DNA from: a candidate division WOR-3 bacterium
GTDB lineage: Bacteria; Hydrothermota; Hydrothermia; LBFQ01; DSFT01
DNA: 43,360 bases
NCBI GenBank assembly: GCA_015494735.1
Contig: WGAQ01000070.1
Span: 1-43,360 of the forward strand
Direction: 5' to 3'
The translations under genes and the position numbers were made by a program. Below are positions 32,720-39,359 of the stretch, piece after piece. Within the stretch, counting starts at the first letter, position 1; every line of letters starts with the position of its first letter. Under the pieces are notes generated by a model. The model was not told where the DNA came from. It worked only from the letters and a program-made list of their open reading frames with translations, and did no database searches.

Positions 32720-34081
32720 ATGCATGGAATGGAACACGCTTCTGGACTTTTACACGCTCTGGGCTTTGACCTCACCGTCGAGCAACTCAGATGGTTTGCC
32801 GTTGCCATCTTCGTGGGCGTTTACGCCATGATCATGCTGGAGAAGTACTTCCACCGCACCGTTGCAGCGATGCTGGGAGCCGCGATAATACTGGTCCTGG
32901 GTATAATGCCTCCCGATAAAGCATGGGCAGCGATAGATTTCAATACCATATTCCTCCTCTTCGGAATGATGAACATAGTCACCCTGCTGGTATGGAGCGG
33001 ATTCTTCAACGTGCTGACCAAGTGGGTCCTGCGATACACGGGTATCAATCCCATAAAGATTATGATAGTATTTGCTGTGGTGACCGCTGTCCTCTCGGCG
33101 TTTCTCGATAACGTGACCACCGTTCTCTTCATCACCCCGATAATAATCAAAATCACCGAGGTTCTCGAATTGAATCCCATACCTTATGTCATCTCCATAA
33201 TCCTGGCATCCAACATGGGGGGAACCACAACCCTGATAGGCGACCCTCCCAACATCATAATCGGAAGCATCGCCGGCAAACACTTCATGGATTTCATAAT
33301 AAATGTGGCACCCTTCGCAACGATAGCCTTCATCGTGGGACAGGCACTGAACGTATTTCAGGTAAAGGTGGAGGGACACCTCGACATAAGCGATCAAATA
33401 GACCTGGAAGAACTGGAAAAACTTGAATTCGGTGATGTGAAGCCAAAACTGATGTACAAGGCTGTAACCATATTCATCCTCACCATCCTCCTCTTCTTCA
33501 TCGGACATATAATCCACATAGAGCCCGGAATCATAGCGCTCTTCATGGCCACCATACTCATGCTGTGGTCCGGCATATCTCCCGTGCAGATTCTGGAGAA
33601 AGTGGAATGGGCAACCCTCATCTTCTTCATGGGACTATTCATAGTGGTGGGTTCTCTTGAATACACGGGAGTATTCGAAATAGTCGCCAACTGGCTACTC
33701 GGAATAATGGGCAACGACATCGGTAAGGGGATATGGATAGTTGGAGGATTCTCCGCTCTCATATCCGGAATCGTCGATAACATCCCGTTCACTATGTCCA
33801 TGGCCCTCGTCCTCAAGGACATTGCCCACGTAATCGGACCCGCCTCAGACCATCTCTGGTGGGCCTTATCCCTGGGGGCATGTCTCGGAGGAAACTTCAC
33901 CCTCATAGGAGCCTCCGCCAACATCGTCGCCGCGGACATATCCACCAGACACGGACACCCCATAACCTTCATGACATTCCTTAAATATGGAACGCCCGTG
34001 GCAATGATCTCCACCTTCACAGCCCTGATAATCTACTATCTGGTCCACATAATTATGCTCAAAACCCACATCGGAGTATGA
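32720..34081 (+). CDS. ArsB/NhaD-superfamily (CitMHS/YbiR-like) anion permease
   Basis: 453 aa and ~11-12 hydrophobic helices. It contains the conserved DNVTTVLFITP and GGTTTLIGDPPNIII hairpin-loop motifs of the ion-transporter superfamily, plus the second repeat IVDNIPF...GGNFTLIGASANIV. Confidence 0.8.
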   Translation: MHGMEHASGLLHALGFDLTVEQLRWFAVAIFVGVYAMIMLEKYFHRTVAAMLGAAIILVLGIMPPDKAWAAIDFNTIFLLFGMMNIVTLLVWSGFFNVLTKWVLRYTGINPIKIMIVFAVVTAVLSAFLDNVTTVLFITPIIIKITEVLELNPIPYVISIILASNMGGTTTLIGDPPNIIIGSIAGKHFMDFIINVAPFATIAFIVGQALNVFQVKVEGHLDISDQIDLEELEKLEFGDVKPKLMYKAVTIFILTILLFFIGHIIHIEPGIIALFMATILMLWSGISPVQILEKVEWATLIFFMGLFIVVGSLEYTGVFEIVANWLLGIMGNDIGKGIWIVGGFSALISGIVDNIPFTMSMALVLKDIAHVIGPASDHLWWALSLGACLGGNFTLIGASANIVAADISTRHGHPITFMTFLKYGTPVAMISTFTALIIYYLVHIIMLKTHIGV

Positions 34082-36624: not shown

Positions 36625-37299
36625 TCAGCCCTCCCCGATATTTTCACCCATTATCCAGTTGAGGATTATCTCCTCGGGCATCCTGTCCATGTTGAACTTC
36701 GAGGGAATGGATGATGGATTCAGGTGGCATATAAATTCCCCCTCATCGATACTTAGTATGTGGTATGCCGCCTTATCCCCCTCCAATTCCCCGCACCTTG
36801 CGAATCTGACCCTCCTATCTATTATGAGCAGGAAGCAGTCCTTCTTATCCGGAATCTCCACGAGCCACGGGACTTCCGAGGATGAAAGGAACTGCAACAG
36901 GGTGGCTATGGGGAAGGCCTTGATGCTTCCATACAGTCTGGGCGTATCCGTTTCCATAACCTCCCTGAAGGCCCTGTAGAAGTTGGAGAAAAAGACCGGT
37001 TTGCGCAGGAGTCTGGTTCTCGAAAAGCGGAGCACGAACCTGTCTATATAGGCATCCTCCAGACCGGTGATGACCAGCGTAGGCACATTGTACTTGACCG
37101 TGAGTTCCGAGAGAAGGGACAGGCCGGACATACCCGGAAGATTTACATCCAGTATGAGAACATCGGGAACGAAGAAGTTCTGCATGAACTCCTCAACCGA
37201 GGCGAAGGACACCACTTCAGAGTCGGGGTCTATCTGGCCCATATAGTCCCGATAGAGATCCACGAGATCAGGGTCATCTTCTATCACCAGAACCCGCAT
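36625..37299 (-). CDS. Response regulator: REC receiver + DUF4388 domain (no DNA-binding output)
   Basis: The track ORF is trimmed to ATG 37299. REC features: MRVLVIEDDPDLV, phospho-acceptor context VLILDVNLPGMSG, LVITG, and LRKP. The C-terminal GSIKAFPIATLLQFLSSSEVPWLVEI...RFARCGELEGDKAAYHIL fits DUF4388. Confidence 0.8.
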   Translation of the reverse strand: MRVLVIEDDPDLVDLYRDYMGQIDPDSEVVSFASVEEFMQNFFVPDVLILDVNLPGMSGLSLLSELTVKYNVPTLVITGLEDAYIDRFVLRFSRTRLLRKPVFFSNFYRAFREVMETDTPRLYGSIKAFPIATLLQFLSSSEVPWLVEIPDKKDCFLLIIDRRVRFARCGELEGDKAAYHILSIDEGEFICHLNPSSIPSKFNMDRMPEEIILNWIMGENIGEG

Positions 37300-37696
37300 T
37301 GCGCTCCACCCTGTACTCCAGTTTCTGCAGAAGTTCCTCCAGAGTTTCGCTGTCGTAAGAGGGCATGGTAAATGCCATGTAGTATCGGTCGAAGAGCCTG
37401 TTACCAAAGGTATCCCTCAGCTCAGGGAACTTGTTCAGGAGGATCCTGGCCAGCCCGGACTTTATACCATTTGTGAAGAAGGCAGGAGATTCCCGGGGGG
37501 GAAGTTCCACCTTGGCCATGATATAGTAATTATTCACGCTATAATCGATCAACCTCCCCTTTATCCGATTCATCGCCTCCTTCAGGTAATCTCCCACCAC
37601 ATCCTTTATCCTCTCCACGTCCCCCTCCTTCAGGGGCCGGGCAAACGGCCAGACGAACAAGTACTTGAAGTCCCCAATCACATATCGGAATTTCAT
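37274..37696 (-). CDS. IS200/IS605 TnpA (Y1 HUH transposase)-fold protein lacking HUH and catalytic Tyr; likely domesticated/inactive
   Basis: 140 aa. By-eye alignment to IS200/IS608 TnpA: FKYLFVWPFARPL vs KYHIVWxPKYRR; NNYYIMAKVELPPRESPAFFTNGIKSGLARILLNKFPEL vs DHIHILxxIPPxxSxSxFxxxLKGxSSRxLxxEF; LFDRYYMAFTM..ETLEELLQKLE vs LWxxxYFxxTVG..xxVxxYIxNQ. The 3' end overlaps the response-regulator start by 26 nt. TATAAT (37708-37713) and a GGAG SD lie upstream. Confidence 0.5.
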   Translation of the reverse strand: MKFRYVIGDFKYLFVWPFARPLKEGDVERIKDVVGDYLKEAMNRIKGRLIDYSVNNYYIMAKVELPPRESPAFFTNGIKSGLARILLNKFPELRDTFGNRLFDRYYMAFTMPSYDSETLEELLQKLEYRVERNAGSGDRR

Positions 37697-37826
37697 CGTC
37701 TCCGAAAATTATAAAGCGTGTTAAAGGATAACATTTTGCCTTAAATTATTCGAGCACTTTGATTTTTCGAATTCCCACATTATTACCTACGAAATATAGT
37801 TTCCTCCCCTCGAATTCTTTAGAGAT

Positions 37827-37832
37827 TAAAAT
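37827..37832 (+). promoter_or_regulatory. -10-like box TAAAAT, 6 nt upstream of the FecR-like gene ATG
   Basis: agagattaaaattttagcATG. Confidence 0.5.
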
Positions 37833-37838
37833 TTTAGC

Positions 37839-39359
37839 ATGTTAAACGCTCAACTGCTGCTCTACACATTGCTGGCTCAGGCTCCTGCAAACGAGCAGGT
37901 GGTGGCGATAGCACTGAGCATACATGGGGAGGCTTATATACAGCCACCGGAAATACCAATATATACTTCGCTGGTTCCCCTTCAGGAAATCAGGGAAGGG
38001 AGCGTAATAAGGATAGAGTCCAATTCGATGGTGGTATTCAAGATAGACGGGAACATAATAAGGCTCTTCGGCCCCACCACCATCAAGGTGGAGGAGATAG
38101 GGAATGAAAAGGGCATAAACCTGATAGACGGAAGAATATACGGAAACTTTAAGAAACCCTTCAGATTGAAAACCAACAGAGTATCTGCGGTGATACGGGG
38201 AACCAAGGTCTCGGTGATAAAGAGGGGACAGGAAATATGGAAGGTCATAAAGGGAACGATAGATGTGGAGGGGATGGGACCGCTGGAGGAGGGGAAGCAG
38301 TTGAACCTCGAGAAAGGGGGAGTGGAAAAACTCGTTCTCGACTCCATAGACCTCCTGAATCTGGCCCTCGATGCGAGGGGTCAGGATACCGTCCCGCCCG
38401 AGATAAAGATAGAGAAAGCCGATATCACCAACAGCAAAGCCTACTCCTTCAGGGTACTCACGGAACCGGGAGCGGTGGTTAAGTTCCAGGGCAGGAGGTA
38501 CACCGTGGATTCCACGGGGCAGATAGTGCTGAAAACGACGCTGAAGAGAGAATTCAACTACCTGACCCTCACCGCAACGGACAGCGCGGGCAATATGTCC
38601 AGAGCAGGATTCCTGGTGAAACTGGACACCGTTCCTCCCAGAATCGATATACCCCTGAGAAGTGGCCTCTATAGCAAAATCCCCCGGACGGCCATTCCGG
38701 TAGAGGGGGACCCGGGGGCAATCGTCAGGGTTGGAAACGGGGGACAGAGGGAAGTACCCCCCTCGGGATATCTTCAGGAGGTGGTCAGTTTGAATCCCGG
38801 GGAGAACACCGTGAGGATACAGGGAATAGATGAGGCCGGCAACTCCACGCAGAAGAAGATCAAACTCATCTTCGACAACACCATACCTTCCATAGCAGTC
38901 ATAAGCCCCACCGACACCCTCACGAGCGAAAGGAGCATAACCCTTCGGTTGAAGGTGATGGACGACAGGTTGAAGGGTGTGGTGGTGAACGGAAAAGTGG
39001 CACCCGTGAAGAACGGCACGGTGACGAAGACGTTCCAGCTAAAGGAAGGCCCCAACACCTTCGAAATATACGCGGTGGACAGCGCGGGCAACATAACAGC
39101 AACCCGGATAAGGGTGGTAAGGGACACGCGTCCCCCTCTGGAGAAGAAAGAACTGACCGTGGACACGTATCAGAACATCACGGGAAGGGTGAAACCCGGC
39201 TCGCTGGTATTCATAAACGGAAATCCCGTACCGGTATCCCCCGATGGAGAATTCTCCCACAGGGTCAGACTGCACAGGGGTAAGAATGTGGTGATAATAA
39301 GGGTGGTGGATATGGCAGGAAATGAAACGGTGGAGAAGCGCATAATAGAAGTTCCCTGA
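37839..39359 (+). CDS. Secreted FecR-domain protein with four Ig-like repeats
   Basis: The short signal-like N-terminus is MLNAQLLLYTLLAQA. The FecR-like beta segment is EGSVIRIESNSMVVFKIDGNIIRLFGPTTIKV...RVSAVIRGTKVSV. Four ~90-aa repeats follow, each opening with DT(V/R)PP or DNTIPS and containing (A/G)(T/V)D.AGN. Confidence 0.7.
   Translation: MLNAQLLLYTLLAQAPANEQVVAIALSIHGEAYIQPPEIPIYTSLVPLQEIREGSVIRIESNSMVVFKIDGNIIRLFGPTTIKVEEIGNEKGINLIDGRIYGNFKKPFRLKTNRVSAVIRGTKVSVIKRGQEIWKVIKGTIDVEGMGPLEEGKQLNLEKGGVEKLVLDSIDLLNLALDARGQDTVPPEIKIEKADITNSKAYSFRVLTEPGAVVKFQGRRYTVDSTGQIVLKTTLKREFNYLTLTATDSAGNMSRAGFLVKLDTVPPRIDIPLRSGLYSKIPRTAIPVEGDPGAIVRVGNGGQREVPPSGYLQEVVSLNPGENTVRIQGIDEAGNSTQKKIKLIFDNTIPSIAVISPTDTLTSERSITLRLKVMDDRLKGVVVNGKVAPVKNGTVTKTFQLKEGPNTFEIYAVDSAGNITATRIRVVRDTRPPLEKKELTVDTYQNITGRVKPGSLVFINGNPVPVSPDGEFSHRVRLHRGKNVVIIRVVDMAGNETVEKRIIEVP

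Follow-up and report, generated by a model that had tools for sequence, protein, structure and literature searches.

A catalytically dead IS200/IS605 TnpA-fold protein whose gene overlaps that of a REC-PATAN response regulator in a candidate division WOR-3 bacterium

Introduction

What can a transposase fold do for a cell once the residues that cut DNA have been lost from it? The question is raised by a gene on a contig of a candidate division WOR-3 bacterium (phylum Hydrothermota; GenBank assembly GCA_015494735.1, contig WGAQ01000070.1), which we analyzed over its whole stretch of 43,360 nucleotides (the window). The gene encodes a protein, here called TnpA-like (P0001), that resembles the Y1 transposases (TnpA) of the IS200/IS605 insertion sequences (IS), and its 3' end overlaps the start of a gene for a response regulator (P0002) in which a receiver domain (REC) is joined to a PATAN domain (DUF4388). 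On the other side, a divergent operon encodes a FecR-like protein and a CHASE2 sensor histidine kinase.

The HUH motif and the tyrosine of Y1 transposases have been established as essential in IS608 and ISDra2 (PMC3597680, PMC3479197). Domesticated Y1 transposases that remain active have been described, namely the RAYTs (PMC3333891, PMC8266576), while the main survey of the Y1 superfamily set aside the homologues without HUH and Tyr as probably non-functional (PMC6006769). We found no description of a dead TnpA in a signalling operon in the searchable literature.

Results

The TnpA-like protein has the fold of IS200/IS605 transposases

The TnpA-like protein matches the Pfam family Y1_Tnp (PF01797) with 28.5 bits against a cut-off of 23 (E value, E, 1.9e-6), and the same family is matched by all of its orthologues (6/6, best E 1.3e-7). 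It scores 28.4 bits against NCBIfam NF033573, the equivalog for functional IS200/IS605 transposases, and does not reach the cut-off of 55 of that model. When the PDB was searched with phmmer, the TnpA of S. tokodaii (2ec2, E 5.8e-9) and the S. solfataricus protein 2f4f (E 1.9e-7) were retrieved, both over residues 11-125, and a profile of the family gave E values of 6.7e-9 and 9.7e-9 against the same two structures. The AlphaFold2 (AF2) model, built from the six orthologues, has a mean predicted local distance difference test score (pLDDT) of 83.7 and a predicted template modelling score (pTM) of 0.80, with its elements in the order strand-helix-strand-strand-helix-helix-strand-helix. In a Foldseek comparison of this model with the PDB the top 29 matches were IS200/IS605 TnpA structures, among them 2ec2, ISDra2, DR_0177, 2f4f and IS608 (E 1.3e-9 to 1.7e-6, template modelling (TM) scores of 0.6-0.77), and the RAYT 4er8 came next in the list (E 2.3e-4). 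The first-pass annotation of the window, made by a model from the letters alone, had proposed a Y1 transposase fold from an alignment by eye; Pfam, phmmer against the PDB and Foldseek are all significant, and we confirm that the resemblance far exceeds chance.

With IS200/IS605 TnpA (2ec2, 2f4f, 2a6m/2vjv of IS608 and 2xm3 of ISDra2) the protein has in common its fold (Foldseek E 1e-9, TM 0.62-0.77), 24-30% identity over the full length, a size of ~140 aa and a basic isoelectric point (pI), which is 9.2-9.4 in the family and 9.2 in active TnpA, compared with 4.6 in the regulator. They also share a set of motifs, comprising the YxFVW strand, PPR, the K-x-x-x-A-R helix, FP and a strand aligned to LW..SYF..T. 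The RAYT/TnpA_REP proteins, class 2 of the TnpA_Y1 superfamily, resemble it in being single-copy, vertically kept Y1 homologues that are regarded as host-domesticated, but structurally it is nearer to IS200-type TnpA (E 1e-9) than to RAYT (2e-4).

The catalytic residues have been replaced

We placed the active site by three independent alignments: phmmer to 2ec2, 2f4f and 2fyx; the hidden Markov model of the family to 2f4f and 2ec2; and MAFFT, in which the reference was an ordinary, active TnpA of another genome in this phylum (L005:1471-1887) with the motifs HVH and YIRYQ. The equivalents of the HUH motif and of the tyrosine helix are listed in Table 1. The six orthologues all have Y58, I59 and L122; they vary at position 60, with M or I, and at position 126, with L or M. 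On the evidence of these aligned sequences, the loss of both histidines, of the nucleophilic tyrosine and of the glutamine is confirmed, and the TnpA-like protein differs in each of these from IS200/IS605 TnpA. The first-pass annotation had read the two histidines as replaced by N and Y; the loss itself stands, while the residues had been misplaced by one to three positions and are actually Y58 and M60. Its reading of the catalytic tyrosine as a leucine agrees with all three alignments (L122), and the glutamine (L126) is gone too. Because both metal ligands and the glutamine are missing, the protein cannot form the metal site.

A tyrosine at the position of the first histidine was also seen elsewhere. 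In the phmmer alignment the putative transposase DR_0177 of D. radiodurans (PDB 2fyx) reads Y-V-H at the HUH motif, its first His being replaced by Tyr like Y58.

The gene is immobile and under strong purifying selection

The host genome is a metagenome-assembled genome (MAG) of 1.76 Mb, 95% complete. In the whole of it Y1_Tnp has a single match, which is the TnpA-like protein, and no TnpB-type domain was found anywhere. The inverted repeats in its surroundings are short and do not exceed what chance would give, and no hairpin repeats of the repetitive extragenic palindrome (REP) or bacterial interspersed mosaic element (BIME) type were found flanking it. Folding of the 142-nt intergenic region as single-stranded DNA (ssDNA), on both strands, gave z = +0.36 and -0.08 with respect to shuffled sequences, and no significant hairpin. 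The G+C content of the gene (0.47-0.53) equals that of its neighbours. Genome search, repeat and folding tests and composition all agree with the earlier description of a gene of native composition with no tnpB and no flanking hairpin, and they show that the gene is immobile, present in a single copy at a fixed locus with neither IS ends nor TnpB. It is thus set apart from IS200/IS605 TnpA by its one copy at a fixed site without subterminal hairpins or TnpB/IscB, by purifying selection of the host type and by its overlap with a response-regulator gene. RAYTs differ from it as well: their HUH and Tyr are retained, they show catalytic activity in vitro, and the REP hairpins that they process flank their genes, none of which applies here.

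Selection was estimated as the ratio of nonsynonymous to synonymous substitution rates (dN/dS), by the pairwise Nei-Gojobori method over the 129 codons ahead of the overlap, taken from a DNA alignment of the orthologous loci. The ratio is 0.03-0.09 wherever dS could be estimated; between the two subclades of the family synonymous sites are saturated, with a proportion of synonymous differences (pS) of 0.71-0.82. The DNA alignment of the locus has the typical pattern of change at third positions only, as in the codons of 21 consecutive invariant N-terminal residues, and the frame is intact in all six lineages. The public call of one orthologue (P0007, 113 aa; L013:3801-4217) begins at an internal Met, and its full frame of 138 codons is intact together with the invariant N-terminus. 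Between subclades the TnpA-like proteins are 76-78% identical, compared with 59-62% for the REC-PATAN regulator, 61% for the FecR-like protein, 55% for the CHASE2 kinase, 52% for the OmpA-like protein, and 61% for both the ABC2 permease and the ABC ATPase. One permease excepted, the TnpA-like protein is the best conserved of the neighbourhood. These data show that the gene is under strong purifying selection, and the dN/dS values back the earlier proposal of a domesticated TnpA. Given the lost residues, the low dN/dS, the high conservation and the fixed locus, we conclude that the protein is a selected, non-catalytic, domesticated TnpA-fold protein.

The excepted permease, a member of the ArsB/CitMHS family (32720-34081), is 93% identical between subclades, where all neighbours are at 52-78%. 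Such a difference suggests that this single gene either is exceptionally constrained or has recently been recombined or transferred.

The overlap with the regulator gene is retained in all orthologous loci

The regulator gene starts at an ATG at 37299. Its overlap with the TnpA-like gene, reported as 26 nt in the first-pass annotation, is indeed of that length in the subclade of the window; the other subclade has a shorter overlap of 20 nt, and every orthologous locus has retained one. As far as the contigs extend, all recovered loci also have the same gene order, across several vent metagenomes and MAGs: the FecR-like gene followed by the CHASE2 kinase gene in one direction, the TnpA-like gene followed by the REC-PATAN gene in the divergent direction and, converging on these from beyond the regulator, genes for an ABC protein, an ABC2 protein and a CarboxypepD_reg-OmpA protein, the last being next to the regulator. 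The pairing of TnpA-like and REC-DUF4388 genes, first seen in the window, is therefore conserved in each relative that bears the TnpA-like gene, all of them of one genus. We presume that the CHASE2 kinase is the cognate kinase of the REC-PATAN regulator.

Table 1. Positions of the TnpA-like gene, its altered motifs and its neighbours in the window
Feature	Position	Strand	Evidence or remark
REC-PATAN (DUF4388) response regulator (P0002), 224 aa	36625..37299	-	Pfam Response_reg 46.4 bits; AF2 model
Out-of-frame overlap (26 nt) of TnpA-like 3' end and regulator 5' end	37274..37299	-	suggests translational coupling
TnpA-like gene (P0001); 140-aa catalytically dead IS200/IS605 TnpA-fold protein	37274..37696	-	open reading frame (ORF), Pfam, PDB matches, AF2/Foldseek, dN/dS
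L122-L126 (Tyr to L122; Gln of YxxxQ helix to L126)	37319..37333	-	three alignments
HUH-motif equivalent Y58-I59-M60	37517..37525	-	aligned to HIH (2ec2, 2f4f) and HVH (L005)
Divergent promoter region (142 bp) between TnpA-like/regulator and FecR/CHASE2 operons	37697..37838	.	six-locus alignment
TATAAT box, putative -10 element	37708..37713	-	11 nt upstream of TnpA-like ATG; invariant in six loci
Near-palindrome (18 bp) AAAGT(G/A)(C/T)TCGAATAATTT, candidate operator	37743..37760	-	conserved in six-locus alignment
FecR-like / Ig-repeat secreted protein, 506 aa	37839..39359	+	ORF; FecR, Big_6, Big_13, Glucodextran_B on orthologues
CHASE2 sensor histidine kinase, 686 aa	39359..41419	+	ORF; CHASE2, HisKA, HATPase_c on orthologues

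The region between the two operons contains a few conserved elements. Since the TATAAT box lies so close to the TnpA-like ATG, the leader of this transcript should be very short. The near-palindrome ends 29 nt upstream of that box, and it has been kept in 6/6 loci save for two purine/pyrimidine positions, with the flanking intergenic DNA having diverged; in subclade 2 it pairs at 8/9 positions (AAAGTATTC and GAATAATTT). There is one exact copy of it in the genome. A search for a regulon, allowing three mismatches at most (<=3), gave four match rows at three places, barely more than the two of a reversed-pattern control. Rfam gave no match on the locus. On the opposite side, a conserved TAAAAT box (window 37827-37841) ends 6 nt ahead of the FecR-like ATG (37839), and its position suggests that the FecR-like mRNA may be leaderless or near-leaderless.

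The regulator carries a PATAN domain in a genome with no PilB-family ATPase detected

In the regulator the residues of the phospho-acceptor site (D8, D9, D51, T78 and K100) are intact, and they are invariant among orthologues. Its C-terminal ~100 aa match PF14332 in 6/6 orthologues (best E 4.7e-7), with the copy in the window at 18.2 bits, under the cut-off of 25; the earlier identification of the partner as a REC-DUF4388 protein is sustained by the family as a whole, although the window copy by itself falls short. Foldseek on the AF2 model gave matches on the REC domain only and nothing on the PATAN half.

PATAN is a proven protein-protein output domain in cyanobacteria, where it binds PilC and PilB1, the ATPase of type IV pili (bioRxiv 10.1101/2021.06.11.447907), and a PilB-type ATPase is the only characterized PATAN target that we found in the literature. 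A search for T2SSE/PilB-family ATPases (PF00437) detected none in the 95%-complete MAG, whereas the same search matched 13/14 control genomes. With no such ATPase detected the PATAN domain must have another partner, subject to the incompleteness of the MAG. The regulator resembles the PatA-type proteins (PatA, PixG, PixE and TaxP; PF14332) in combining REC with PATAN, in a family whose PATAN output is by protein contact, but its domains are in the order REC-PATAN rather than PATAN-REC, its PATAN domain is short (~100 aa), and its host is without a detected ATPase of the family that PATAN is known to target.

Two PATAN proteins are found in the MAG (C70 and C159:39494-39787). The relatives of the regulator at the level of the order were set aside, as they turned out to be a longer paralogue that is distinct from it and lies beside a PorV-like gene, where no neighbour is Y1-like. 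This second REC-PATAN family (342-359 aa, with an extra C-terminal domain of ~150 aa; L020:1045-2073 on the minus strand and L022:1492-2571 on the plus strand) is conserved across the order, where it adjoins genes for a PorV-like outer-membrane protein and a phosphoribosyltransferase-like protein, and has a paralogue in the genome of the window (C159).

The TnpA-like family is limited to one genus

Orthologues of the TnpA-like protein, at 76-93% identity, were found in other vent metagenomes and MAGs. A word-indexed search of 5.8 billion proteins returned five clusters, all of them orthologues, and an exhaustive phmmer search of 1.84 billion representatives returned only its own cluster and one other protein, P0008, at 30% identity. 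In the phylum (201 genomes) there were two true matches, both in the genus of the window, and two others that do not belong to the family, namely the ordinary active TnpA used above as reference (L005) and a spurious match within a radical-SAM gene (L004). Similarly, a search of the class with the family profile (64 genomes, 20 genera) found the gene in two genomes, both of that same genus. The regulator and kinase genes have a distribution as narrow as that of the TnpA-like gene. We also considered whether the four-gene module could be seen as an insertion or deletion with respect to the sister genus. Neither the regulator nor the kinase nor the ABC2 permease could be detected there; this genus has diverged too far to be of use in such a comparison, and we dropped the argument that the module was gained as a unit.

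P0008 was rejected as a wider relative, being an unrelated case in a different context, beside an AAA_22/WHD_MalT gene on a 2-kb contig. It is a Y1_Tnp homologue of 160 aa from a Joint Genome Institute (JGI) metagenome (L028:126-608), encoded upstream of that gene, in which HUH is lost (S-V-Y) and the Tyr and Gln are kept (NYLEQQ); judged from these motifs, it is an independent and apparently partly dead TnpA.

Discussion

Our preferred answer to the question posed by this locus, to which we give a probability of roughly 60%, is that the TnpA-like protein is a domesticated, non-catalytic descendant of TnpA that works with the REC-PATAN regulator downstream of the CHASE2 kinase. We infer a role as partner or output of the regulator from the gene overlap, the contrast in pI between the two proteins, the invariant helix described below and the failure to detect a PilB-type ATPase. 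The conserved overlap suggests that the two proteins would be made together, in roughly equal amounts, from one short-leader transcript, and that the TnpA-like protein would act with the regulator downstream of the divergently encoded FecR-like protein and CHASE2 kinase. The basic TnpA-like dimer may be an effector or adaptor bound by the acidic, phosphorylatable regulator through its PATAN domain, and phosphorylation could then control the binding of the dimer to nucleic acid, be it structured ssDNA, RNA or an operator, with the near-palindrome of the shared promoter region as the first candidate site.

Binding of nucleic acid is plausible from the sequence. The segment E64-K89 is invariant save at position 86 and includes K79, R84 and K89, on the helix that follows the PPR motif. 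In TnpA_REP the surface formed by alphaB and alphaC binds the hairpin, and alphaC enters its minor groove (PMC3479197). The helix after PPR would correspond to this surface, which is our own reading and not a structural superposition. As a target of the protein the near-palindrome is speculative.

Several points weigh against this interpretation. The family is limited to one uncultivated genus, so that its co-occurrence statistics rest on a single evolutionary origin, and the function of the protein is only inferred. The flanking ABC2 gene is also undetected in the sister genus, and because it is as restricted as the others the phyletic pattern cannot single out the four-gene module. The incompleteness of the MAG could conceal copies of an IS as well as a PilB gene. 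That the regulator lacks a DNA-binding domain carries less force as an argument than it might seem to, considering that PATAN is itself an output domain. The conserved intergenic block could be mere promoter elements, and the sequencing runs that bear the locus are DNA only (hydrothermal-vent metagenomes), with no RNA run among them.

Two of the ways to account for the protein deny it either a function or a loss of activity. That it might have no function in itself, being a decaying remnant of IS200 or an ORF called in error, is in keeping with its score, well under the NCBIfam IS200 equivalog cut-off (28.4 against 55 bits), and with the opinion of Quentin et al. 2018 that Y1 homologues without the core motifs are probably non-functional (PMC6006769). 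We find this hardly credible, since a relic is effectively refuted by the dN/dS of 0.03-0.09, and the frame is unbroken in six lineages despite synonymous saturation, with 21 consecutive invariant N-terminal residues whose codons differ at third positions only. That it might still be an active nuclease or transposase working through non-canonical residues, for example with Tyr58 or Y105-Y106 as nucleophile, draws on the invariant tyrosines Y57, Y58, Y105 and Y106 close to the former active site and on the Tyr that 2fyx likewise has at the first-His position. With both metal ligands and the Gln missing, and with one copy at a fixed locus without ends, hairpins or TnpB, this is very improbable. 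An independent role as a domesticated DNA- or RNA-binding protein (for example a nucleoid, replication-fork or ssDNA factor), whose position would merely reflect the chance landing site of the ancestral IS, would explain why none of the signalling genes matches the TnpA-like one in conservation, as expected if the constraint arises elsewhere. But an out-of-frame overlap with the start of the regulator has been preserved in both deeply diverged subclades, no orthologue was found apart from the regulator, and regulator, kinase and TnpA-like gene are equally narrow in distribution; we consider such a role distinctly unlikely.

The remaining alternatives concern what the protein does within the signalling module. 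It may be a pure protein-protein adaptor or modulator, an alpha/beta dimer derived from TnpA that has lost the ability to bind nucleic acid. Such a dimer would bind the regulator, or connect it with some cellular machine, and so tune phosphorylation or localization in the manner of the small connector proteins of two-component systems. Protein contacts are the means of signalling in the known PATAN regulators (bioRxiv 10.1101/2021.06.11.447907), and a stoichiometric complex is suggested by the translational coupling. The N-terminal nonapeptide MKFRYVIGD, invariant yet predicted to be disordered (pLDDT 38), is reminiscent of a docking motif. In the same order, moreover, REC-PATAN paralogues carry a C-terminal domain of ~150 aa in cis, so that pairing with small extra modules does occur among PATAN proteins here. 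We give this possibility real weight, while holding it to be unlikely, because the protein is still strongly basic and is most conserved in the helix by which active homologues contact DNA (PMC3479197). Also on the unlikely side, and put forward tentatively, is the specific proposal that the TnpA-like protein is the nucleic-acid-binding output of a split response regulator that switches transcription of the divergent operons. The CHASE2 kinase would phosphorylate the REC-PATAN protein, whose PATAN domain would then control the transposase-derived dimer, and the dimer would recognize a structured ssDNA or RNA hairpin, or the near-palindrome. If true, the Y1 transposase fold would have given rise to a two-component output of a new class.

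Operons that combine a response regulator, a FecR-like protein and a CHASE2 kinase are known, for example BiofilmReg of Burkholderia contaminans (PMC5192318). The trio of FecR-domain protein, CHASE2 sensor kinase and response regulator is the same in both; however, the regulator of BiofilmReg is a DNA-binding transcription factor and the operon has no transposase-derived gene, whereas here a REC-PATAN regulator is preceded by a dead TnpA, which is an unusual addition to the known architecture.

The TnpA-like protein is a 'dead' Y1 copy kept by very strong purifying selection within a two-component operon. A parallel has recently been discovered in TnpB, the other protein of the IS200/IS605 elements, from which nuclease-dead regulators are derived. 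These TnpB-like nuclease-dead repressors (TldR) derive from the RuvC nuclease TnpB, are RNA-guided and have a demonstrated repressor function. Both cases present an IS200/IS605 protein that has lost its catalytic residues and been recruited, in our case presumably, for regulation in the host; unlike TldR, the protein described here comes from TnpA, has no known guide, and its regulatory role is putative. Its small size, its soluble appearance and its origin in a vent organism that is probably thermophilic should make it an easy protein to express and assay. It is a candidate partner of a PATAN regulator in a genome where no type IV pilus ATPase is detected, and it suggests that the hairpin-binding fold of TnpA may be a reusable, non-catalytic module.

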